Of a DNA stretch of 64,000 nt, positions 12,805 to 62,204 are shown in pieces. Source of the DNA: Eledone cirrhosa (lineage: Eukaryota); assembly GCA_964016885.1 (NCBI GenBank), contig OZ024743.1, positions 201,128,001-201,192,000 on the forward strand, given 5' to 3'. The position numbers and the translations under genes are program-made. Numbering within the stretch: the stretch's first letter is position 1; each line of letters starts with the position of its first letter. The notes under the pieces are model-generated. The model was not told the DNA's origin. It saw only the letters and a program-made list of their open reading frames with translations, and ran no database searches.

Positions 12805-15800
12805 ATCATCATCATCATCATCATCGTTTAACGTCCATGTTCCACGCTTGCATGGGTTTGGACGGGAGTTGTCCCACTTGAGGCAAGAGTGGTTGTCTTG
12901 CTCGCATAGGACTGTCTGGCGGGTTTTCTACAGCTGGATGCCCTTCCTAACACCAACGACATTTACAGTGTGGAAGTGGGAGGTTTTTACCGTGTTACCT
13001 ACAGGGCCACATTACAGCGTGGACTGTGTGTTTTTTTTGTCGTGACACCTACACGATCTCATTTGTTTCGGCCTGGATGTTGTGGCACCAACATAACTTT
13101 ACATCGAAAGGGGCGGTGTGGATGGGGTAGGGGTGGTGGGACGGGGGTGTATTTTGTTAGAGATGCCTACTGACTGTAGTAGGTTTTACTTTGTATTTAG
13201 GTAAGGCGGGTCTTCTCTATTACTGAGTACCGCCAAAGATCTCGGTCCAGTGACATTGTCTTGGAGAGGTGTAAGTGTGTGAGGTCGGAATTTATCATGT
13301 CGTCCCAGGTTTTTCTGGGTCTGCCTACTCCGTGGCTACCGTCTATCTTTATTGCCCTGCAATTTTTTATACAGCTGTCGTCTTTCATGCACATCACGTG
13401 ACCATACCAATGTAGCCTTCTCTCGAGTAAACAACATCTGATCCCTCTTATTTCTAATTTTTCCCTTAGTTCGTTTATGCTTTGCCGTTCACGTATATTA
13501 CTATTAGACATCCAGCGGAGCATGCAAGCTTCGTTCCTCTCTAGTCTGCGTATATCCTCTGCACACAATGCCCAGGTCTCACTGCCATGCAACATTGCTG
13601 TTCATATGCAGGCATCATACAGCCTCCCTTTCATTTTTAGGGAGAACCCTTTAGCGGCTAATAGTGGTATAAGCTCTCTGAACTTTTTCCATCCAGTTCT
13701 GACTCTAGCTACTTTACTTTCAGAACACCCTCCCCCACTGCTGATTTTGTCACCCAGGTAACGGAAGCTGTCCACTATTTCTATAGAACCCACTGCGCAA
13801 TTGAAAGAGCTAGTATTTGTGGGCACTTGTTGCTACTTATTGCACCAGAGCTCCGGCCACATGTAAAATCTATGTTCTTAGTTAGCTTACCTGTGATCCC
13901 ACTACATCTTTTATGCACCCATACTTTGCATTTGGGACATAAAATGGAGTTTCTACCTACGCCTTTCCTACACACTGAGCATGGCCATTTCCCGGAAGGG
14001 ACCGGCGCCTTATTTTCTTTCCTACAAACTAGAACTTTAGTCTTAGCCAGGTTAATTTTAAGGCCTTTTGATTCTAGGCCGTGCTTCAATGTTTGGAATT
14101 TCTTCTCTAGCTCGGCCATTGATTCAGCTATGAGCGTTAGATCATCTGCGTATAGGAGTTCCCATGGGCAGCCGGTCTTGAACTCCACTGTTATAGCCTG
14201 AAGGGCAATAATAAATAGTAGGGGGCTAAGAACAGAGCCCTGATGAACACCAACTTTTACGCTAAACTCTTCACTATATTCGTTGTTAATTTTAACATTG
14301 CTGACTGTTTCTTTATACATGGCTTGTATAGCTCTCACAAGCCAATCATCAACACCTAGTTTTCTAAGAGCCCACCAGATAATGAAACGGGGGACTCTGT
14401 TGAAGGCTTTCTCCAAGTCGACAAAAGCTAAGTTTAGAGGTTTACTTTTAGCTAGGTACTTCTCCTGTAGTTATCGTACAATGAAAAGAGCATCTGTGGT
14501 ACTTTTGCCTGACACAAACCCGAACTGCATTTCTAGGTCAATTCTCTCTCTGATTAGTTGCGCTATTACTTTTTCCGTGACCTTCATGACCTGGTCGATT
14601 AATTTAATGCCTCTATAGTTACTCCTATCTAGGGCGTCTCCTTTACCCTTGTAGCAGTTAATGATGATGGTGCTACGCCAGTCCTTCGGAACAACCCCAT
14701 TCTGTATGACTTGGTTTACTATCCGGGTGACCATGGTGTGTCCCACCATTCCAGAGGCTTTCAGCATCTCAGCAACTATTTCCGAAGGCCCAGCCGCCTT
14801 ACCTGTCTTCATATCTTTGATTGCCTTACTTATTATATTACCTTCGACTAACACTGCTGGTTCCTCTATTGGGTCGATGTGGGGGAGACTGTCTTTCTCC
14901 CATTTATTCTCCTCATTTAGTAGCCTTTCGTAGTGACACTTCCAAGCTACCTTCTTATCAGCGTCAGTGATGGCAAGTACGCCATCATCATTAAGTACAC
15001 ACTTCTCCCCGACAATATCACGGTTTTCCTTGACACATTGTCTAGCAATCCTGAACACCTTACGTTTTTGGTCCTCGCGTTGTAGAACATGCTTGAACTT
15101 TCTTTCCTCTGCTTCCCTTCTTGCGAAGTACACTTGTCTCCTAGCTTCCCTCCTGGCCACTTGATAGTCTTCTCTACTTCCCCCATCCCGCCATACTTTC
15201 TAAGCCTGCTTTTTGGCCTTAATTGACTCCTCCACCTTACTGTTCCACCACCATGTTACTCTCCTCCTGCCTACAGGCCTGCTCCAGCTACAGACTTTCT
15301 CTGCCGCCATTAGCAGGTTTGCTTTCAGGAATTCCCACTGTTTCCTCTATATTGTACGACTCTAATGCTCTTCCTTACTGTCAAAAGCATCAAGTAATAT
15401 GCTTTTAAATTTATTTCTGGCTGTGGGGTCCTTTAGCTACATATTTTTCTCCTGAGGATAGTCCTCTTCTGCTGTCTAGTACGTCTCGTCCTGACTATGA
15501 GGTCGTTAATTATCAGTCTATGTTGGGAGGTGCATTCTTCATGGGGGAGGGATTTAGTCTTTACAACAGACACTCTGTCACGTCTTCTGGTAAGGATATA
15601 ATCTACCTGGCTGGTATGTTCCCCTGATCTGTAGGTGATCAAGTGATTGTCTCGTTTTTTGAAGTTAGTGTTAAAGATAGTTAGGTTATTTGCATCACAG
15701 AATTCCAGGATTCTGGAGCCTTCCTCGTTTCTAGTACCAAACCCATAGCCTCCGTGGATTCCGTCATAGCCGTCACAATGTTGTCCAACGTGGCCATTTA

Positions 15801-15846
15801 GGTCGCCAACAATAATTATATAGTCACTGTCGGTTATTGTCGGTTA
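12805..15846 (-). mobile_element. RTE-clade LINE, 5'-truncated, with stops and frameshifts (partial AP endonuclease, RT, PHD-like finger, 3' UTR, (ATG)n tail)
   Basis: GDLNGHVG / SQVDYIL (APE), KGKGDALDRSNYRGIKL, QFGF, EKAFNRV, GVHQGSVLSP, LYADDL, FRYLG, HGSETW, GRPRKTW. Confidence 0.95.
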
Positions 15847-18599: not shown

Positions 18600-19715
18600 A
18601 AGGGAGGTAGGTGTAAAAGCCAAACTCGTTATCTCCAATTCAATATCCATGCCAACCCTTACCTATGGTCATGAATCTTGGGTAATGACTTAAAGAATAT
18701 GATTGCGAATACAAGTGGCCGAAATGAGGCTCCTCCGAAGGGTCTTTGGAGTAACATTATGATCATCATCATCACCGTTTGGCGTCCGTTCTTCCACGCT
18801 AGCATGGGTTAGACGGGTTGTCCTGTTGTGGGCAGTGTCCGGTCAGCTGACCATGTCTTGCTCATACAGGAACTGATTCTGGCTTGATTTCTACAGCTGG
18901 ATGCCCTTCCTGAAACCAACCTCATTTACAGTGAGTGCTAGGTGCTTTTTTTTTCTGTGGCGCCTACACGTCCACTTTACAGTGTGGGCTGGGTTATTTT
19001 TTGGCGTGGCACCTCCACGACCACTTTGCAGTGGAATGATAGAGACCCCAGTCCTATCATCTCATTTCTACAGCTGAGTAAACTGGAGCAATGTGATATA
19101 AAGTGTCTTGCTCAAGGAAACAACACATCACCCGGTCTGAGAATTGAACTCACAATCTTTCGATTGCAAGCCTAATGCTCTAACCACTAAGCTATGCGTC
19201 TTCATTATTCAATAACATTATTCGATAAACTTTAAAGCTTGGAGATCAGAGAGTCACTCCAAGTAGAGCTGCTTAATGACTGAAAGAATATGATTGCGAA
19301 TAGATGCCATCAAAATGGGGTTCCTCCATGTTACTCAATAGATTGTGTAGTTTGTGTAGTTCCTCCATGTTACTCAATAGATTGTGTAGTTTGGAGATCA
19401 GAGAGTCACTCCAGGTAGAGCCACTACTTCTCCGAATTGAGAGATCACAACTCCAATACTATTGGCTTGTGGTTAGAATGTCTCAGGAAAGAATCACAGG
19501 ACAGATTTTACGGGCAAAACCAGTCGGCAGGTGAGCCAGGGGTAGACTCTGAGCAAAATCCTTGGATAACATCCATGACCTTGGCTGATCTCATTTGGGG
19601 ATCTAGCTGGATCAGTTGGAGATGGTTGCTTCTGACAGGACCTGCTGGAAGGGAGTGTTTGAGGACTCTGCCCCCACGACCCTCTCAGGAATAAGTGGTC
19701 AAAGAAGAAGGTTAA
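18600..19715 (+). mobile_element. Second RTE family 3' fragment interrupted by SINE A (18762-19205, minus); relatives at ~34000-34385(+) and ~40980-41225(-)
   Basis: PTLTYGHESWVMT..IQVAEMRLLRR..LEIRESLQVEPLLLRIERSQL; taacattat repeated on both sides of the SINE (likely TSD). Confidence 0.75.
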
Positions 19716-22953: not shown

Positions 22954-23732
22954 ACAATTCTATTAATAGAACGATTATCCTGGGATAAATACAGTCAGCC
23001 CCTCCCCTGTTATTAAATATCTATGGCTATGTGTATCCAGCTTAGAACAGTACACTGTATCCTGTTATTAAATATTTATAACTGTGTCCTCAGGTAGGGA
23101 TTCACTAGATCTTATCTTGCTAAATAGAGAGTGAAAATGTTGTAGAACTTTCTCACCACCATATTGTAAGAGCTCTGCATATATGCCATCTACACCTGGA
23201 AACCATCCACTGTTCAACTTTGAAACATCTTTTCTTGCAACACAGTGGTTCTGTGAGAGGTAATTTTACAGGATTTTCAGAGATTAGATTGAGGAAATCC
23301 TCATCGACAGAGGGCTGGTTGAAATGTTCTTGAAAGTGCTCTCACCACCTTCACAAAATACCCTGTAATTCATTAAGTAGCTCCTAGCCATCCCTGCTAT
23401 GAAGCAGTGTCACCAGTTAAGACATACATACATACATACATGATGGCTGCAAACTCTGCTAAGAGTATTGCAATCGACGTAGATATATATACATTTATAT
23501 ATATATAAACAATTAAGTTAAAAATGTACATCTACATATGCATACTGAAATACTAGTGTGTATATGAATACACACACGTATGCATATGTAGGTGTACCAA
23601 GTCTTTCACTGGTCGCTTTACAGTGAGCGGCCCAGCTATTCTGTATGTAAACACACAGAAAAACCGGTTTTTAGAGTCATACTGGTTTTTGGGGGAACAC
23701 CTTCCCCCTATTCTACAGAAAGCCAGACAAGG

Positions 23733-23777
23733 AATATTGAACTAGTTTCGTTGTTGTTACAACTCATCAGCAATATT
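23733..23777 (-). ncRNA. Type I hammerhead ribozyme (minimal)
   Basis: Exact reverse complement of 24288-24332. Confidence 0.85.
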
Positions 23778-24287
23778 TACCTATCTACCGGCCCTTCTGG
23801 AGAATTGTAAAAGCACATATCGTTATATGCTTTTTCTATGAAAATTAGTAGTGGGCAGACTAATTTGCATAGAGTGTGAGTACGCACCGGTTCAGCGGAG
23901 ACGATAAAAACAAATAACGAAACGAAATTAAATTTCGTTTCGTTTGTAACTCACTTTTGTATGACTGACGCTTACTGTAAAGCGACCAGTGAAAGACTTG
24001 GTACACCTACATATGCATACGTGTGTGTATTCATATACACACTAGTATTTCAGTATGCATATGTAGATGTACATTTTTAACTTAATTGTTTAAGCGTCAG
24101 TCATACAAAAGTGAGTTACAAACGAAACGAAATTTAATTTCGTTTCGTTATTTGTTTTTATCGTCTCCGCTGAACCGGTGCGTACTCACACTCTATGCAA
24201 ATTAGTCTGCCCACTACTAATTTTCATAGAAAAAGCATATAACGATATGTGCTTTTACAATTCTCCAGAAGGGCCGGTAGATAGGTA

Positions 24288-24332
24288 AATATTGCTGATG
24301 AGTTGTAACAACAACGAAACTAGTTCAATATT
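24288..24332 (+). ncRNA. Type I hammerhead ribozyme (minimal)
   Basis: aatattg-CTGATGA-gttgt-aaca-acaac-GAAAC-ta-GTT-caatatt: 7-bp helix I, 5-bp helix II, palindromic ACTAGT helix III. Confidence 0.85.
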
Positions 24333-24619
24333 CCTTGTCTGGCTTTCTGTAGAATAGGGGGAAGGTGTTCCCCCAAAAACCAGTATGACTCTAAAAACCG
24401 GTTTGTCTGTGTGTTTACATACAGAATAGCTGGGCCGCTCACTGTAAAGCGACCAGTGAAAGACTTGGTACACCTACATATGCATACGTGTGTGTATTCA
24501 TATACACACTAGTATTTCAGTATGCATATGTAGATGTACATTTTTAACTTAATTGTTTAAGCGTCAGTCATACAAAAGTGAGTTACAAACGAAACGAAAT
24601 TTAATTTCGTTTCGTTATT

Positions 24620-24685
<66 letters not shown>

Positions 24686-25129
24686 TATAAATATGTATAT
24701 AGGAATATTTAATATAGAAATGGCTTCTATAGGACTAGAACTGTTTCATTCGGGAGAAATCAGGAACCTCGGATAAACTTATATATACACACATATATAT
24801 ATATATTATATATATATATTATATATTATGGAATACTGTTGGCTTCTTGCTCACAATAATTTCTATACTTTTCATTTATATATATATTATGTGTGTGCGA
24901 GAGAGAGTAAACATATATATTTATACACACACACACATATATACATACATAAACATACACATGCCTATATATAAATTTCTAAGACCAAAAATTTACAAAA
25001 TTAAATTGTAATCTAACATACACACACAAATGTATCTCCCATCAAAAATAAAAAAGATAAAACATAAAAAAAAAATGAAATATATAAGACAATTATTTAT
25101 AATTTCTTTATATTTCTTATATTTCCTAA

Positions 25130-28012: not shown

Positions 28013-28051
<39 letters not shown>

Positions 28052-28069
28052 GTATATATAGTATATATA

Positions 28070-28118
<49 letters not shown>

Positions 28119-28119
<1 letters not shown>

Positions 28120-29033
28120 GAGGTGTGTCAGAAAAGTTCCAGGACTGATGTCACAAAAGATTTATTTCAAACACAAACTTCACACTAAGAGTTTTCTCCT
28201 TCAAAGTAATCCCCCTGGAGTCTAATGCACTTTTCCATCCTTTTCTGCCATGCTTGCATACACTCCTGGAAGGATTCTTCCGGGATCCTCCGCAGTTCCG
28301 TCGTCACGGCCTTTTTGATGTCATCCATGTCTTCAAAACGGGTCCCCTCTGGGTCATACTCGAAGATCCATGACTCATCACCGGTGATGACTGTCCCTAG
28401 CAAGTCTGGTTCGGTTTCAAGATGCTCAAGGATGTCCTGGCACACTTGCATGCGTCGACCCTTCTGGTCATCGTTTAGTAGTTTTGGCACCATCTTCGTT
28501 CAGACTTTCTGCATGTCCAAATCTTCAGTGAGAATCTTCCAGACGCTGTCCCTAATGATGCCCAGCTCATTTGCCATCAGTCGAACAGTCAGCCGACGAT
28601 CACTACGCACCATCTGCCTGACGTGCTCAACGTTGAGCTCAGTCCTGGTTGTTGAGGGCCTTCCGTTCCTGGGGTCATCTTCCACATCCTTGCATCCTTC
28701 TTTAAACTTCTTGCACCACTCAAAAACATGTGAGCATGACATCGTCTCATCTCCATACACTTGCTACAGCAATCCCAGTGCTTCTGACGGAGTTTTCCCC
28801 AACCGTACCAGAAACTTCAAGTTTGTTCGTTGCTCTGTGCTCATTGCTTGATGACCTGAAACAGAGGACTGTATATAAAATTATGAAGAAAAAAGTTTGA
28901 TTGATGCAGAGAGCTAAGATTACAGTTACATACTCCAGGGGGATTATTTTGAAGGAGAAAACTCTTAGTGTGAAGTTTGGGTTTGAAATAAATCTTTTGT
29001 CACATCAGTCCTGGAACTTTTCTGACACACCTC

Positions 29034-29034
<1 letters not shown>
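28119..29034 (-). mobile_element. Non-autonomous mariner with internal deletion and 103-bp inverted termini, in (TA)n
   Basis: MSTEQRTNLKFLVRLGK..DDPRNGRPST..VPKLL..ITGDESWIFEYDPE|GTRFED..QGDYFEG; inverted repeats 28119-28221 / 28932-29034. Confidence 0.9.
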
Positions 29035-29128
<94 letters not shown>

Positions 29129-29228
29129 TTTGGTCGTCAAGTATGAAATTTGTAGAAATCTCTTTTTTTTCACAAATTTCTACAAATTTCATATCTAACG
29201 ACCTAATATATTTCTATATACGTATATA

Positions 29229-29260
<32 letters not shown>

Positions 29261-30849
29261 CATATATATTTATATGTGTATGGACACACTAGAAGAGGAA
29301 GACCAAGGTTAACGTATGTTGATGCCCTAAGGACAGACACTGGTCTGTTGGAGACGCAGGACATGGCAGTGATAATGAGGGACAGAGACCGCTGGAGAGA
29401 ACTCATCCATGGATCTCGGGAATTTTACTCGCCTTAGAAATATATATATCACTCGACAACTCTCTACATAGATATAAGATCATATTTTTTATGAAAATTC
29501 TACAGATATTGGTATGAATGATTCCAAAGAAATCTGTTGTTATTTTTATTTGTTTATTTATTTGTTTTGTGATTTTAATTTTTTTTATTTCCTGAGGTTG
29601 CCATGAAGTTGTATTAAGGCTTACTGATTCCACCCCACTCATTCACAACCACACATACACTGTTACCTTTATTACCATCAGCACCATGACAATCATCATT
29701 ACTATCACCACATCCCCATCACTACCACTGTAACTACCACCCCCAACCACCACCACAACCATTGATGTCACCACTCTCATGTTCACCACCATCACTACCA
29801 GCACTATTGACACCACCATCATCACTACCACCAATACCATCACCACCAGCATTGTCACTACCACTATTACATTCACCACCACCACTACTATTGTCACCAT
29901 CATAGCAATAATAATCACCAACACCATCACCACCATTACCAATACTTCATCAATTAGTGATGTTTGTATGGACATTTCATAATTCTTTCTCTCTTCCATC
30001 CAACTCTTTATCCCACCTCCAACCAAACCTCACCTCACTTTATCACCAGCCCCACACACTATTCCAAATAAAGCTTTTTTAAATTCTTCACAGAATTGAA
30101 ATTACATAATCCTGTTAATGAGATAGTATACTTACACACATGCATTCATCAACATGAAGCAGCATTTACAAAGATATTCATGAAAAAGTATAAAATAAAA
30201 CTACGACTACATCACATTAAAAATCAATGTTCTTAAATATTACAAATATTCACAACTATTAGGATATTACAAACATTAGAATAAACATAACCGTCTTTAG
30301 ATATTTATAACTAAACTATTACAAGAGTTAATTGATAAATGCTATTAAGACATTTTGAAGAGATACATAGAACATTGGATATACATGTCTTCTCATGAAG
30401 GCTTTCCTTGACTTTCTTAAAATTTGAATATAAGACCTACTATTATTTTTATTTTTATTTTTATTTCTTCTTATTATTTTTTATTCTTTATTTTTTTGTT
30501 TCCTTCCCTAATTTTCCCATACTACTCCTTAGAGTTTCTCTTCTTCCCCTGTCTGAATTTTTCTAAAGAAGGATTTCTGTACCAAACGACGAAACCTCCT
30601 TCACACACCCACACACACACACATATATATATATACCGAAGGAAGTGTGGTAAGGAATGAGGTGGACCATAACGCACCAGAGTACTCGATACTTTGGGTA
30701 GTAGAGTGAGTAATAGGAAAAGAGTCAGGACTCCGACGGCTGAGCTTTGGTCATTTTGACGGCTATTTCTGGACTAAATTAGTCCAGAAATATCCATCGA
30801 AACAGCTTGAGTTCTGCCGTCGGGGTCCTGACTCAAAGAGTCATATATA

Positions 30850-31723
30850 CAGGGTGCGAACTTTATTTGTTCGCAAGATTACTGTCTAGGAAAAAATAAC
30901 ACAGTAGTTTTATTTTTATGATTTATTTATCAAACTTGGGTCAGTTTGTCTTCATGACTTGTTCTTTCCATCTCACTCGATAAACCCGCCATTGGCTTTG
31001 ATGACGGCCTCAAGGTGGCCTTGGAACCGGCTACAGGCCTTCGTCACTGTCCCCCGACTTAGGCCCCTAAAGGCACTTGTGATCCTGGCCTTCAGATCGT
31101 CTTTCGTATTGCAGCTAGATCTGTTGGTGTCTCGTTCCACTGCGCCCCACACAAAGTCGAGGGGGTTGCAGTCAGGCGAGCTGGGAGGCCAGATGTAAGG
31201 TGAAGTGTGGTCGATGAAGTTCTCTGACAGCCAGGCTTGGGTCTTTCGGCTGGTATGGCAGGGCGCTGAGTCTTACTGCCACATGTACGGCCTACCTGCA
31301 GCTACCTGGTCGATCCAGGGCTTTACTACCTCGCTCAGAACGCGGATGTAGCCATCGGTGTTCAGCTTGAGGCCCTCAGGGAAGAAGTGAGGTGGCATGA
31401 CGTCACCTTGACTGCTGACGACACCTAAGACCAATGTTGTTGCTGGGAACTTTGTCTGCATGCCTCTGGGCACGTCTTTGGATGAGACAGCGAGCCACCT
31501 GTTGGTCTGGGAGTTGATCTTCTGGTCTTGGCAGAAGTTTTTCTTGTCGGAGAAAAACCACAGCATGTCTGGCTCCAGTGGGTGTTTCAACTTGTTGATC
31601 AGCTTCTTTGCGTGCTTTAGTCGCTTTTCTTGCATCGCCTTTGACTGAAATTGTCCTTTCCTCATCTTGTATGAAACGTAGCGAATGTCTTCATGTACCA
31701 CCAGGCTAATGAGCTTTTCATCC
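30850..31723 (-). mobile_element. Tc1/mariner superfamily DD37D (maT) transposon, 5'-truncated, with an in-frame stop
   Basis: WFFSD...MWQ*DSAPCH-(37 aa spacing)-SPDCNPLDF; terminus ta|cagggtgcg. Confidence 0.85.
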
Positions 31724-31944
31724 ATATATATCCATGTATATATATACTGTGTATATATATATATACCATGTACGTCAATACTCATCTTTTTCCATTTCTC
31801 TGAGGGTTCTAAACCCCACTATCAGGCTAAAAATTTCTTCAGTCAAAAATACGGTGAAAGCTTCTATTTCTAATTTCAAACTCATTCACTGTTTCAAAAC
31901 ATACTTACATATATATATATTTATATATATATATATATATATAT

Positions 31945-32596
31945 GAGAAATTAGAAATAAGAGATGTTGTTTACTCGAGAGAAGACTACGTTGGTATGGT
32001 CACGTGATGCGCATGAAAGACGACAGCTATATAAAAAAGTGCAGGGCAATAAAAATAGATGGTAGCCACGGAGTAGGCAGACCCAGAAAAACCTGGGACG
32101 ACTTGATAAATTCCGACCTCATACACTTACACCTCTCCAAGACAATGTCACTGGACCGAGAGCTTTGGCGCTACACAGTAATAGAGAAGACCCGCGTTGC
32201 TTAAGTACAAAGTGAAACCTACTACAGTCAGTAGGCACCTCTAACAAAATACACCCCCGTCCCACTACCCACACCCCATCCACACCACCCCTTTCAATGT
32301 AAAGTTATGTTGGTGTCACAACATCCAGCCCCAAACAAATGAGGTCGTGTAGGTGTCACGACAAAAAAACACACAGTCCATGATGTAATGTGGCCCTGTA
32401 GGTAACACGGTAAAAACCTCCCAGTTCCACACTGTAAATGTGGTTGGTGTTAGGAAGGGCATCCAGCCGTAGAAAACCCGCCAGACAGTCCTATGCGAGT
32501 AAGACAACCACTCTTGCCTCAAGTGGGAAAACTCCCGTCCAGACCCATGCAAGTGTGGAATATGGACGTTAAACGATGATGATGATGATGATGATG

Positions 32597-32597
<1 letters not shown>
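31945..32597 (+). mobile_element. RTE LINE 3' fragment
   Basis: MRMKDDSYIKKCRAIKIDGSHGVGRPRKTW + 3' UTR + (GAT)n. Confidence 0.9.
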
Positions 32598-32668
<71 letters not shown>

Positions 32669-33762
32669 GAAAAATGAACAAACAAATCACAAGAGGCAAA
32701 TTTAAATGGATATATTAGGTTCACACTGGTGGAAGTGAAGGAGGTTATGTATATTCAAATTTTAAGAAAGCCAAAGAAAGCCTTCATAAGAAGACATGTA
32801 TATCCAATGTTTTATGTGTCTCTTCAAAATGTCTTAATAGCATTTATCAATTAACTCTTGTAATAGTTTAGTTATAAATATCGAAAGACGGTTATGTTTA
32901 TTCTAATGTTTGTAATATCCTAATAGTTGTGAATATTTGTAATATTTAAGAACTTTGATTTTTAATGTGATGTAGTTGTAGTTTTATTTTATACTTTTTC
33001 ATGAATATCTTTGTAAATGCTGCTTCATGTTGCACAGTTCTTTCAGCAGTGTTTTCACATGGTTACTAAGCTAGCCATGATCACAGCTTAAAATACAAAA
33101 AGCATGACTTACGTATGTTTCTTATACATAAATATATTGTATATGATTTTGTATACATTTCTATTATGAATCAGAGTGTGCTCATGCTACTGCTACTGAT
33201 ACATACACTACTAATACTAAACTATCTCAAACTGACTCTGGTTCTATGTTACAAATCTGTTTATTTTAAAGTATTTATATTTATCTAAAAACCTTCCATT
33301 ATAATTTTATGTAAGAAGCTTTGTTAAGCTATGCTCCAAACACCAACTTAATAATGAGAAAATTACTTATATTACAAAACTCATTCAAATTCTAGATTAT
33401 TATTTAAATGATCTGAAAAATCCTAGACAGTATCTATCATTAGCAATATGGTAATGAAAGGGTTAAACATCTACTATTACTGAGTACTTAATGGATTAAA
33501 GTCCTAGACAAAGGACATGAAACTAAGGTTAATGAAACAATCAATCCAAATATAACTACAAGAGAATTCTACTAACATTAACCAAGTTTTGAAAAACTTA
33601 TTTATATCTCTTCTACTCCATTATCAGTATACAAGAAATGTTTCACTGCCAAAACATAAACATACATAATTGAGCAACATGTAGAAAGGAAGCTGCTAAA
33701 AAAACATACCAGAGATAAGAAATAGGGGTTAAATCAGCATGTAAAAACCAACATATTTATGC

Positions 33763-41704: not shown

Positions 41705-42177
<473 letters not shown>

Positions 42178-44049: not shown

Positions 44050-44538
44050 ATAAATCTACCAAAATATACGGTAGTGTCCAATCCGTATGAAGAACTCAAT
44101 GTAATCCAAATATCATGAAAAGAAAAGATGTATTCAAAAATTTTTTCGATGAAAATCACAGGAAAACAGAGTTAAGATAAATTAATAAAAACAATGAATA
44201 AAAACAAAGAAACAGTTCCTTATATTAAAAAATTCATCATTTTACGATAGTTTCTAGGATATATATGTGTGTGTTGGTATGTATATCATATAGATCTATG
44301 TAAAAATTTTACAAACTATCAGAGGGAATATACATACCTACATATATATATGCTATCTTCAGAAATAATATATGTAGGTTGTATATTCCCTCTGATAGTT
44401 TGTAAAATGTTTACATAGATCTATATGATATACATACCAACATACACATATATATCCTAGAAACGATCGTAAAATGATGAATTTTTTAATATAAGGAACT
44501 GTTTCTTTGTTTTTATTCATTGTTTTTGTTAATTTATA
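44050..44538. mobile_element. Head-to-head inverted HHR element (arms ~44177-44347 / 44369-44538)
   Basis: ~170-bp near-perfect palindrome between simple repeats. Confidence 0.8.
44236..44369 (-). ncRNA. Type I hammerhead with a ~100-nt extended helix II
   Basis: attattt-CTGAAGA-tagcatatatatgt...acatatatatccta-GAAAC-tatc-GTA-aaatgat; the sister arm has palindromic ACGATCGT. Confidence 0.7.
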
Positions 44539-48680: not shown

Positions 48681-49245
48681 CTCTGCTGCTGCCATCATCT
48701 CTCCTGCACTAAATAGCATGTTTTTTTTCACTGTATTCTCTGTCTATCTGACTACTCTCTCTCTCTCTCTCTTTCTCCCCTTCTCTCCCTCTCTCTCTGT
48801 GTCTATCACTGTTTTTTTTTATCTTTGCATGCTTCACTATTATGTTTACATAAAGCCTTCATTGTAATAAGTATACCCTCACATGTATATATCCTTATAT
48901 GCATACAATCATATACTCCCATATTTTCATTGTCATTATCAGTTTCACATAATTTTCTTACTAGCATGGGCTGGACAGGACCCTTTCAAGTGGCTCGATA
49001 CCCTTCTTCACACCAACAGTTCTAGTCACTTCTTAAGACATTCAAGGATATAGTATATATATATATAGATATGCCAACACTAGAGCCACAATGGCGAGGT
49101 TGTTCTATTCACATGATTTAAGAGGTTGTTTGCATAATTGCAAATGAATTAAATATTATTATTAATATTCGAAATTTACATTTCTTGTATTCAGCCATGT
49201 AGAGCGATAAAACTATTTGTTAGTTTTATATATATATATATATAT

Positions 49246-49365
49246 TGAAAGGATAACAAGGACGATTGGTTACTCAATCCTTACATTTATTGGTAGGTGA
49301 CGCGCGTTTCGCCACTGTTCAGCTCAAGGTTCGATCTGTATCAATCTTACCCGACTCTGTAATCC
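49246..49365 (-). ncRNA. 3' half of a hammerhead related to the 51.1-51.6 kb family
   Basis: ...ccttgagctgaacagtggc-GAAAC-gcgc-GTC-acctacc; the CTGANGA half is missing. Confidence 0.5.
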
Positions 49366-49490
49366 GCAGCACGATGGACCATTTATCTTTTCAATATAAT
49401 ACACTCTGTATAGCTCTACACCTCGACTCAGAAGTGAACCTAAACATCGAGTGCTCACCCGAGTGAACCTACAGTAACTCCAAGTACACT

Positions 49491-49524
<34 letters not shown>

Positions 49525-49528
<4 letters not shown>

Positions 49529-50270
49529 GTTAATATGTCCAGGGATACTAGGTACCCCTAGAAATATATAGGTTGTCTATGATTCAAGGTTGTTCAATGG
49601 TGTTAATTTGATACACCAGAACTTTAATGAGCTTTGGTTTTCCATCATAAATCCATCGGATTTATGAGGTTTTACAAAGCGAAACTGATCAGTAAGGGCC
49701 ACTAGGAGAGGTAAATATTTATATTATATTTTTTAATGTATTTTGAAAAATTGATTGAATTTTACTTGTTCTGCTTATCTTAATATTAAAGTTCTGGTGT
49801 ATCAAATTAACACCATTGAACAACCTTGAATCATAGACAACCTATATATTTCTAGGGGTACCTAGTATCCCTGGACATATTAACTTCTACCTTTTTCTCC
49901 GTCCGTTGAGAACAATCCTGTTGCTCTACTTGGCTGCTATTTTTTTAGTAGTAATTGTAGACAGCAAGTCTTTGATTCTCCCGCTTTTACTTCGGTCCAG
50001 TTTACATACGGGGCAATTTTACGACCTTTCAGACCTTTATTAGCTGGCAGGAGGTTGTATATTTTGTCGTTCCTGGGACGTTTAGCCCTAGGAAGGGAAA
50101 ATGCTTCTCTGATGAGCTTTGGTTTTCCATCATAAATCCATCGGATTTATGAGGTTTTACAAAGCGAAACTGATCAGTAAGGGCCACTTGGAGAGGTAAA
50201 TATTTATATTATATTTTTTAATGTATTTTGAAAAATTGATTGAATTTTACTTGTTCTGCTTATCTTAATA
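49525..50270. mobile_element. Retrozyme-like element: ~100-bp inverted arm + ~1.3 tandem copies of a 485-bp unit, in (TA)n
   Basis: atgagctttgg at 49627 and 50112; 49525-49628 is the reverse complement of ~49785-49889. Confidence 0.85.
50102..50186 (+). ncRNA. Type I hammerhead ribozyme
   Basis: tgcttct-CTGATGA-gctttg..(hairpin)..caaagc-GAAAC-tgatca-GTA-agggcca; helix I is imperfect. Confidence 0.75.
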
Positions 50271-50349
50271 TATATATATATATATATATAACCTGCCAAT
50301 ACTGGAATTGAATAATCAAAACCATAGTGGTATGTCACATATCAAATGA

Positions 50350-50416
50350 TATATTTTGTCTGATGAAAATGTACTTAAACACCATTGTACCTTTGAAATA
50401 TATATAATAAAATATA
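50350..50416 (+). ncRNA. Type I hammerhead ribozyme
   Basis: tatattttgt-CTGATGA-aaatgtac..gtaccttt-GAAA-tatata-TA-ataaaatata. Confidence 0.7.
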
Positions 50417-50975: not shown

Positions 50976-51167
50976 TAGTTGAAATATCAACTAAGAGTGA
51001 AATCAATCTTTTCCTTTTTTACAAATATATGTATATATATATAGTTATATGGTGGCATGTGTCCGTAGGCGGTATGCTAGTTGAGCACTCGATGCTCGCG
51101 TAGAGCAGAGTATAACACTATAAGGATAAGGAACAAGGATTCGGTGTTGCATCATAACATATTTAAT

Positions 51168-51261
51168 AACATATTACATATGTTTCACTATCGATCAGCT
51201 CAAGGCAAGACCTATTATAGATGAAACCTGACTCTGTAATCGAAAGATCGTCAGATAGGCT
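51168..51261 (-). ncRNA. Type I hammerhead (left arm of the inverted element 51117-51562)
   Basis: agcctat-CTGACGA-...-GAAAC-atat-GTA-atatgtt. Confidence 0.7.
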
Positions 51262-51419
51262 TAGTATATGAGCTTGTCATATACCAAGCAGACTGATGAT
51301 AGTGATGGAATAATTGAAGAAATGAACGGATGTAGAATAACATGATGTTAAAAATGTGCTGTAGATAGATAATAGCTAGAGATTTACACACACAGAATCG
51401 GAGACGAGACCATATACCA

Positions 51420-51511
51420 AGCATATCTGATGATCTTTCGATTACAGAGACAGATTCGATCTATAATAGGTCTTGCCTCAAGCTGATCGATAATGAAACA
51501 TGTAATATGTT
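51420..51511 (+). ncRNA. Type I hammerhead (right arm)
   Basis: agcatat-CTGATGA-tctttcgatta..tgatcgataat-GAAAC-at-GTA-atatgtt. Confidence 0.75.
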
Positions 51512-51770
51512 ATTAAATATGTTATGATGCAACACTGAATCCTTGTTCCTTATCCTTATAGTATATATATATATTTTTTTTTTTTTTAGAAAGAGACAGG
51601 GCCCAATGGCTGAGCTCTTGCCATTTCAACAGCTAGTTCTACACTCTACAATTCCAGATATCAAATATTCTGTTGAATAACTAATTTAATATTGGTTTCA
51701 TCCTGATATATATATATATATATATATGGAGGAGGTTATAGTTCACTTGAAGCATTGTGTAATGAGGTAC

Positions 51771-52167
51771 AAACGTTTGTATATGTATAATAAAGCCAAA
51801 ACAATGCAGGTATGGACATAGAATAAAGAATGCAAATGCAAAAGATATTGTTGACAATTAGTCTTTTACCTTAGATTTATTTAAATGTCCTTAATTTTCG
51901 AGATAATATCTCTTCTTTCGAGGGAAGTAAAGCGGTTAAACCAGTGTTCTAAATAGCTTGCCAAGTCATGCTGACAGGAAATGGCAAGCTATTTAGAACA
52001 CTAGTTTAACCACTTTACTTCCCTCCGAAGAAGAGATATCTCGAAAATTAAGGACATTTAAATAAATCTAAGGTAAAAGAATAATTGTCAACAATATCTT
52101 TTGCATTTGCATTCTTTATTCTATGTCCATACCTGCATTGTTTTGGCTTTATTATACATATACAAAC

Positions 52168-52171
<4 letters not shown>
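51771..52171. mobile_element. Head-to-head palindrome (arms 51771-51963 / 51982-52171) with a degenerate hammerhead-like core
   Basis: ~190-bp arms; tccct-CCGAAGA-agagatatctc-GAAA-at-TA-agga near 52020-52055. Confidence 0.65.
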
Positions 52172-52207
<36 letters not shown>

Positions 52208-56777: not shown

Positions 56778-57036
56778 CCGGGTTCAATCATGGGTAACCA
56801 CAGCAAGCAAGTAAGGTACTCAATACATTAGTAGAGTGTAAACATCAAATTTAATATAGAAATAGTTTCTACAGAGCTAGAACTGTTTCATTAGAAAGAA
56901 ATCATCAGGGCTTTCCTGATGATTTCTTTCGAATGAAACTGTTTTAGTCCTGTAGAAGCCATTTCTATATTAAATATTTATACTCTGCTATATATTGAGT
57001 ACCTCACTTACTGTGATTACCCCCAATTGAATCCGG
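56778..57036. mobile_element. Head-to-head palindromic HHR element; relative at ~24700-24770
   Basis: Arms 56778-56910 / 56914-57036 meet immediately 5' of two divergent CTGATGA cores. Confidence 0.75.
56909..56960 (+). ncRNA. Type I hammerhead ribozyme
   Basis: ggctttc-CTGATGA-tttctttcgaat-GAAAC-tg-ttttagtc-ct-GTA-gaagcc; the opposite arm has an intact ACAG/CTGT helix III. Confidence 0.6.
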
Positions 57037-62139: not shown

Positions 62140-62204
62140 TATTTTATCTGATGAAAGCGCACCAAGGTTTGCTTGGTTGCCCTTGAAATATATATAATAA
62201 AATA
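62140..62204 (+). ncRNA. Type I hammerhead within the inverted element 62049-62248
   Basis: tattttat-CTGATGA-aagcgcaccaag-gtttg-cttggttgccctt-GAAA-tatata-TA-ataaaata. Confidence 0.8.

Follow-up and report, generated by a model that had tools for sequence, protein, structure and literature searches.

A probable 485-nt hammerhead retrozyme family in Eledone cirrhosa with a PLE-type insertion footprint

The 485-bp hammerhead element described here, located at 49494-50290 of the window (the whole 64-kb stretch of Eledone cirrhosa DNA that was analysed), represents a new family of a known class, the non-LTR retrozymes. We consider the copy in the window to be a young insertion of a non-autonomous hammerhead retroelement (non-LTR retrozyme or mini-PLE) that was moved in trans by an endonuclease-bearing Penelope-like element (PLE), and give this reading a probability of roughly three in four. 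The PLE-type features found at the locus are partial tandem pseudo-LTRs (pLTRs), an adjacent head-to-head inverted 5' piece, a one-sided tail, and a (TA)n target. The inverted arm runs from one putative start site to another both in this element and in an unrelated one at 23.5 kb, which suggests that both target strands served as primers, with two internal sites as the points of initiation.

The formation of PLE tandem and inverted ends, and the PLE-driven movement of retrozymes via circles, are stated to be open questions in passages of the recent literature (Craig 2021, PMC8557442; Cervera 2020, PMC7229834; Li 2026, 10.64898/2026.07.22.740005). Being small, young, and present in many copies, a retrozyme that shows the complete PLE footprint makes a handy test object, and its tail-only inverted arm may be a clue to how such elements are copied. 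An inverted arm that runs from start site to start site leads to a sharp prediction that can be counted across one genome. Apart from this junction rule, the element adds one more family to a widespread and already described class.

Structure of the 485-bp element

Read from left to right, the locus opens with a (TA)n tract and an inverted arm of 105 bp; these are followed by 1.33 copies, joined head to tail, of a unit of 485 bp (GC content 36%) and by a second (TA)n tract. The sense arm (49627-50271) is 645 nt long and begins at the AUGA of the CUGAUGA hammerhead core. Comparison of its two ends revealed a direct, pLTR-like repeat of 160 nt on the plus strand (49627-49786 and 50112-50271) with a period of 485 and an identity of 159/160, the sole mismatch being A49704/T50189. 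The upstream repeat is 5'-truncated within the hammerhead core, and the downstream repeat ends at a site that we call X (unit positions 49782-49786), 92 nt past the predicted ribozyme cut. Between the repeats lies a non-coding body of 325 nt (49787-50111, plus strand). This body includes the "tail" (49787-49889, plus strand), which is bounded by two putative start sites, X and Y (49887-49889), and is predicted to form two hairpins between unpaired AU-rich linkers.

The inverted arm (49524-49628, minus strand) is the reverse complement of 49785-49889, with an identity of 105/105, and spans only the 103 nt from X+1 to Y. Its inner end (unit 49785-49787) abuts the end of the sense arm (50271, equivalent to unit 49786). 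Its outer end coincides with site Y (unit 49887-49889) and shares a TA microhomology with the target. At the head-to-head junction, the AT at 49627-49628 is common to both arms, and this inner junction shows no palindrome, only the 2-nt microhomology. Alternating TA tracts flank the element on the left (49494-49525, 32 nt) and on the right (50268-50290, 23 nt, the first 4 nt of which are common with the unit). Since the target is itself a TA run, a target-site duplication is unreadable.

The longest stop-to-stop frames of the circular unit are 83 aa (plus strand) and 69 aa (minus strand), and neither of these two frames matched a Pfam family. An ORF encoding a reverse transcriptase (RT) and a GIY-YIG domain is absent between the pLTRs, no Pol III A or B box was found in the element with a simple consensus, and no PLE reading frame was recognised by eye among the 57 frames of at least 130 aa in the window.

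An earlier note on this DNA had described a right arm that starts in the ribozyme core (ATGA) and runs for one unit plus about 160 bp, an inverted arm that starts where the right arm ends, and the lack of an ORF; our analysis agrees on all three points. The note had also called the unit circularly permuted. The 485-nt period is borne out, whereas free permutation points are not, because other copies, too, have TA-tailed ends at 49786-49788 and 49886-49887. An arm longer than one unit falls short of proving an RNA circle, given that partial tandems are the normal form of PLE insertions.

A predicted type I hammerhead ribozyme

We searched for hammerheads using a motif rule (CUGANGA ... GAAA ... 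UH with three helices, helix I being open) and found a complete type I motif at 50102-50186 (plus strand). Its parts are the core CUGAUGA at 50109-50115, GAAA at 50166-50169, and GUA at 50177-50179, with a predicted cut after A50179. Stem II is very long, with 6 bp at its base opened by G10.1-C11.1, stem I is weak (4 contiguous bp, or 6/7 with one C-C mismatch), and stem III is a 10-nt palindrome (50169-50178). The same rule was satisfied by just one of 3000 dinucleotide shuffles of the unit. The proposal that the unit carries a hammerhead with GUA at 50177-50179 is thus upheld at the level of a complete motif and a predicted cleavage site. Rfam gave no hammerhead match at 50100-50190 at E<=10, for which the very long stem II may account; it does match the hammerhead of the 23.5-kb element (38.6 bits, below the gathering score).

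The active hammerhead fold (-19.8 kcal/mol) lies about 17 kcal/mol above the local minimum (-37.1 kcal/mol), and the computed energy of the stem III palindrome duplex is -13.6 kcal/mol. On these grounds, the predicted ribozyme probably cleaves poorly alone and better as a dimer. Weak, dimer-dependent cleavage has been described for PLE and amphibian hammerheads (PMC7229834; Cervera 2014), and eight of nine Xenopus retrozymes tested did not cleave, according to the sections of Li 2026 (10.64898/2026.07.22.740005) used here.

The upstream repeat carries a truncated hammerhead (49627-49701, plus strand) that retains stem II, the stem III palindrome, and GUA (49692-49694) and is without C3-U4-G5, three core letters in which it differs from the second copy, and without the 5' strand of stem I. 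Because these parts are lost, the upstream copy should be unable to act as an enzyme; in a dimer, it could serve as a substrate for the downstream copy. A or U is common at the cleavage position in the family, and the change 49694 A>T gives GUU in some copies.

The family in public sequencing runs

One unit (49627-50111) was compared with four of 15 public runs, namely X1, X4, X13, and X14, with X6-X11 left out. Runs X1 and X4 are contigs from two studies with two organism labels, and X13 and X14 are RAD-seq reads from one study. We found 306, 17, 353, and 296 records on the unit in the four runs, respectively, in identity bands from <90 to 99+ and with several different flanks. The 485-nt unit family is multi-copy and dispersed. 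Coverage of the unit extended to all 29 bins in three of the four runs and to 25/29 bins in the fourth.

The tandem joint 50111->49627 is present in 4/4 runs, which means that there are copies that continue past 49627, the position at which the window copy is truncated. Given this read-through, the family probably includes copies with an intact upstream core. Another joint, 50111->49669, occurs in X13 only. Among the 24 loose ends listed of 85, TA-rich ones occur at 49786 (X4, one contig), 49788 (X13, 60 reads), and 49886 (X1, one contig), and a 9-nt AT-rich one at 49887 (X1). Termini X and Y therefore recur in other copies, with offsets of 3 nt at most. The joints listed for the four runs include no change of strand, and the tail-only inverted arm is known from this copy alone. 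The breakpoint mapping suggested in the earlier note thus succeeds for the TA-tailed ends near X and Y and finds no counterpart of the inverted junction in these four runs.

At several sites (for example, 49706 and 49846), the copy in the window departs from almost every read, on the basis of which the runs may stem from a related population or species. At 49704, T segregates in the family (8/33 reads in X13, 15/43 reads in X14, and also in X1 contigs). The summed contig depth in X1, which is no measure of copy number, climbs towards X and Y and drops after each. Read-end pile-ups in the RAD-seq data at 49737, 49758, 49805, 49808, and 49956 were attributed to restriction cuts rather than to biology, as four of them coincide with or adjoin an AATT word and the fifth a TTAA word. 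Pattern scans of public metagenome, genome, and viral contigs returned 0 matches, with a first pattern that excluded the common C49702T variant.

RNA fold and structure-preserving variation

The predicted 485-nt monomer, from GUA to GUA (49695-50179, plus strand), has a circular fold of -142.8 kcal/mol. The z-score is -6.8 for the plus strand versus -1.7 for the minus strand (40 shuffles each), which points to constraint on the hammerhead-sense RNA. In the predicted fold, X and Y are unpaired AU-rich linkers, with an unpaired probability of 0.84-1.0 at both sites.

Variation within the family keeps the plus-strand RNA fold. When the 40 variants listed of 93 were placed on the circular fold, 16 were unpaired, 16 kept a pair, and 8 broke a pair; random placement of these 40 of 93 gives 15.4 +/- 2.4 pair-breakers (P 0.0026). 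Three of the eight pair-breaking variants lie in the region of stem III, whose minimum fold differs from the fold of the ribozyme. Among the same 40 of 93 variants, T49648G and A49664C are compensatory in stem II, where two further changes keep a wobble pair. In one tail hairpin, G49799A and C49811T are likewise compensatory, and AT>TA at 49688-49689 preserves the stem III palindrome.

A second element at 23.5 kb

The window contains a second hammerhead unit, of 467 nt, in an element located between TA tracts at 23496-24678. It has a predicted GUU triplet and a circular fold with a z-score of -10.4. Its sense arm (23974-24625; 652 nt, 1.40 units) carries a 66-nt tail. Its inverted arm (23506-23974) is the reverse complement of 24091-24559 with one mismatch and a period of 467. 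This arm is exactly one unit long, with the same unit position at both ends, one turn apart. The two units show no significant similarity (best match 13/14 nt, E 0.54), in line with their description as unrelated in the earlier note.

That note had also stated that the 485-bp element replicates the 23.5-kb architecture. This is so for the general footprint, which equals the published PLE footprint and is seen in at least four further head-to-head fold-backs in the window. It is not so for the specific junction: an inverted arm that starts at the end of the right arm is what we find at the 485-bp element, whereas at 23.5 kb the inner end of the inverted arm lies 66 nt before that end. What the two elements have in common is that both ends of the inverted arm fall at a putative start site (2/2 elements with a known unit). 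The chance of this is about 0.1% if stops are uniform, or 0.35% given the microhomology, both figures being post hoc with n=2. In both elements, the inverted arm lies wholly inside the span of the right arm.

Two further resemblances may be due to chance. A word identical at 13 of 14 nt (24280-24293 and 50191-50204, E 0.54) sits next to the ribozyme in both unrelated units, upstream in one and downstream in the other, and contains GGTAAAT, which we take to be splice-donor-like. The sense arms of the two elements are also nearly equal in length (652 nt at 23974-24625 and 645 nt at 49627-50271).

Comparison with known retrozymes and PLEs

The 485-nt family resembles metazoan non-LTR retrozymes (PMC7229834; 10.64898/2026.07.22.740005) in its non-coding tandem unit, single type I hammerhead, GC content below 50%, multiple copies, structured plus strand, and palindromic helix III. 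PLEs are proposed in the same sources to mobilise such retrozymes, and Li 2026 (10.64898/2026.07.22.740005) argues for their PLE origin. The unit length of 485 nt compares with 150-450 nt in Cervera 2020 (PMC7229834) and 51-972 nt in Li 2026, and the window copy, with 1.33 units and one complete hammerhead, is not "active" by the rule of Li 2026. Retrozyme circles were shown in Cervera 2020, whereas the 485-nt unit is known here from DNA sequence alone. Inverted arms are a further point of difference, as the word "inverted" occurs 0 times in the passages of PMC7229834 considered here.

PLE insertions are described as combining a partial tandem with a 5'-truncated copy that lies inverted next to it, a tail on one side only, and a bias towards (TA)n (Craig 2021, PMC8557442; Arkhipova 2013, PMC3846280). 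The 485-bp element is like those of endonuclease-bearing PLEs (PMC3846280, PMC8557442) in its two direct pseudo-LTRs, its head-to-head inverted 5' piece, its tail at one end, and its (TA)n target. It is unlike them in having no ORF between the repeats and a tail of 103 nt instead of the published 30-40 nt. In addition, its inverted piece consists of the tail alone, with at most 2 nt in common with the pLTR, whereas a truncated pLTR copy is inverted in published PLEs.

In Frangieh 2024 (PMC11167929), a purified PLE protein, for which a dimer is predicted, cleaves and extends the two strands of an AT-rich target, with initiation at two internal sites of the RNA between which the tail lies. The 485-bp element parallels this system, Poseidon_Ac, in having two putative start sites that bound the tail, an AT-rich target of which both strands would be cut and extended, and a hammerhead upstream of the starts. 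Here, however, X and Y are deduced from genomic ends and are unpaired linkers 103 nt apart with 2-4 nt in common with the target, whereas the passages of PMC11167929 that we used report no start-site homology. Nor do these passages derive the inverted arm.

Proposed mechanism and alternatives

Under the reading that we prefer, that of a retrozyme mobilised by a PLE, the plus strand would be transcribed from a tandem source. A PLE enzyme would cut both strands of a (TA)n tract, and each 3' end would prime reverse transcription at an internal start site. The recurrence of TA-tailed ends at 49786-49788 and 49886-49887 is what would be expected if X and Y were the two fixed start sites on either side of a PLE tail. 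The right target end would prime at X, copy 645 nt over two uncut or religated hammerhead sites, and stop within the core of the upstream ribozyme. At the left target end, priming would take place at Y, 103 nt further 3', and the resulting cDNA would stop at X. The simplest account of this stop would have both primers on one RNA, with the downstream one meeting the upstream one. The two cDNA ends would then join at the 2-nt AT microhomology. In L1 twin priming, too, a single RNA is primed by both target ends and an inverted 5' piece results; there, the second primer lies upstream of the first cDNA, and the 5' part is what it copies. At the 485-bp element, by contrast, the place of the second primer would be downstream of the first start, and only the 3' tail would be copied.

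As the template, we lean modestly towards a linear multimer over a circle. A self-cleaved and ligated 485-nt monomer circle, copied by rolling reverse transcription, would replace the linear-multimer step only, and we hold it to be somewhat the less probable of the two. It would suit a right arm that crosses two predicted cleavage sites intact, a plus strand that folds far better than its shuffles, and a 23.5-kb inverted arm that makes exactly one turn and ends at its own start. Retrozyme circles were moreover shown in coral, mussel, and axolotl (Cervera 2020, PMC7229834), and a circle has been proposed as the template of PLE copies longer than one unit (Cervera 2014). However, no more than 0.4 kcal/mol separates the circular fold from the linear one, and the anole PLE had uncleaved RNA as its main in vitro substrate in the experiments of Frangieh 2024 (PMC11167929). 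The mismatch A49704/T50189, a segregating family variant, would also arise more easily from a heterogeneous tandem than by gain after one circle was copied twice; this argument is weak, as 19 of the 40 variants listed (of 93) fall within the 160-nt repeat.

Another possibility, to which we give clearly lower odds, differs from the proposed mechanism in one step, the inverted arm being made at the DNA level. The endonuclease would nick the tandem cDNA at X and Y, or a cDNA end would switch to its own strand, and an X-Y or Y-Y piece would be laid down inverted. In published work on PLEs, the tail has been ascribed to endonuclease resolution of an intermediate (Craig 2021, PMC8557442), and self-priming on an antisense template was favoured by Arkhipova 2013 (PMC3846280). 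The location of the inverted arm inside the right-arm span in both elements, and the AT-richness of X and Y, fit such a step. The inner junction, with its 2-nt microhomology and no palindrome, does not, and both-strand extension from the same start sites has been shown in vitro (PMC11167929).

It is unlikely that the 485-nt unit is instead the degenerate end of an autonomous PLE of greater length, or was derived from such a PLE by internal deletion. In Xenopus, 24/57 retrozyme families are homologous to known TEs, and 21 of those 22 TEs are PLEs, with the homology at their termini (Li 2026, 10.64898/2026.07.22.740005). The hammerhead of the unit also matches the description of PLE motifs in that helix II is long, helix I short, and helix III palindromic (Cervera 2014). 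Against this, the unit closes upon itself after 485 nt, both in the window copy and in all four runs, shows no coding remnant, and is covered over most or all of its bins in every run. An origin of the unit from a PLE end is compatible with our preferred explanation.

An artefact of assembly is very improbable, as is a DNA event unrelated to retrotransposition (fold-back or satellite slippage). The near-identical arms do lie between simple repeats, where assemblies fail, and the exact inverted junction is absent from the joints listed for the four runs. Nevertheless, the tandem joint and the TA-tailed ends are found in independent runs, the repeats differ at one site, and the structure-preserving variation is strand-specific. 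A MITE or DNA transposon is ruled out by an inverted arm that pairs with the interior and not with the right end, and a viroid- or Obelisk-like nature by the branched fold, the lack of an ORF, and the genomic TA-tailed copies.

The two elements can be brought under one rule, which we offer as a speculative generalisation with the odds against it. The inverted arm of PLE-type insertions would be a second cDNA, primed from the other strand at one of two fixed sites and halted by a primer on the same RNA. In the 485-bp element, this arm would then be confined to the tail (Y to X, 103 nt), and in the 23.5-kb element it would make the full turn (Y to Y, 467 nt). If true, the two would give one rule linking tail, inverted arm, and circle, and the 467-nt Y-to-Y arm would be a genomic fingerprint of reverse transcription around a retrozyme RNA circle. 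A literature search by title and start of abstract found no tail-only inverted arm, start-to-start rule, or cephalopod retrozyme; the early D. virilis Penelope papers and supplements lay outside its scope and may hold such cases.

Other repeats in the window

The window is AT-rich and contains many TA, CA, and trinucleotide microsatellites together with mobile-element debris. Fold-backs near TA runs are located at 51728-52174, 51045-51562, 44177-44537, 56778-57036, and about 29120-29215. The first two have one-sided tails of 40 and 72 nt, respectively, and the fold-back at 56778-57036 shares about 59 nt with 24704-24762.

Directly left of the 485-bp element lies a TA-flanked repeat (49245-49494). 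Its minus-strand part is homologous to an arm of the element at 51117-51278 (0/500 shuffles), and its plus-strand part has 13 nt in common with the tail of that element in the opposite orientation (7/500 shuffles). It is possibly a mirror-image insertion with a long arm and a tail arm. We did not count it as a third junction case, as the body homology is firm, the tail homology is 13 nt, and the junction is not mappable. A hammerhead-like 3' half with an incomplete core occurs at 49293-49328 (minus strand; Rfam 15.6 bits, E 2.3). Loose matches to the hammerhead rule at 50360-50406 and 62148-62196 have a 3-bp stem II and AT-rich text resembling assembly or PCR-style TE depletion footprints (CTGATGAAA...TTTGAAATATAT), and are probably not ribozymes. 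Rfam matches to miRNAs and snoRNAs were set aside as simple-repeat noise.

Other mobile elements include a broken LINE at 13197-15843 (minus strand) with endonuclease- and RT-like frames and 3' repeats, which from its motifs we take to be RTE-like; related copies lie at 31.9-32.7, 57.0-57.8, and 62.2-64.0 kb. Long terminal inverted repeats bound 28022-29129 (200 nt) and 30150-33032 (283 nt), and a frame inside the latter (31273-31818) has what is presumably a Tc1/mariner-like motif. Finally, tRNA-like heads at 19137-19194 (minus strand) and 41803-41860 (plus strand), with Rfam scores of 33.1 and 31.2 bits, belong to one repeat family, whose members are probably tRNA-derived SINEs.
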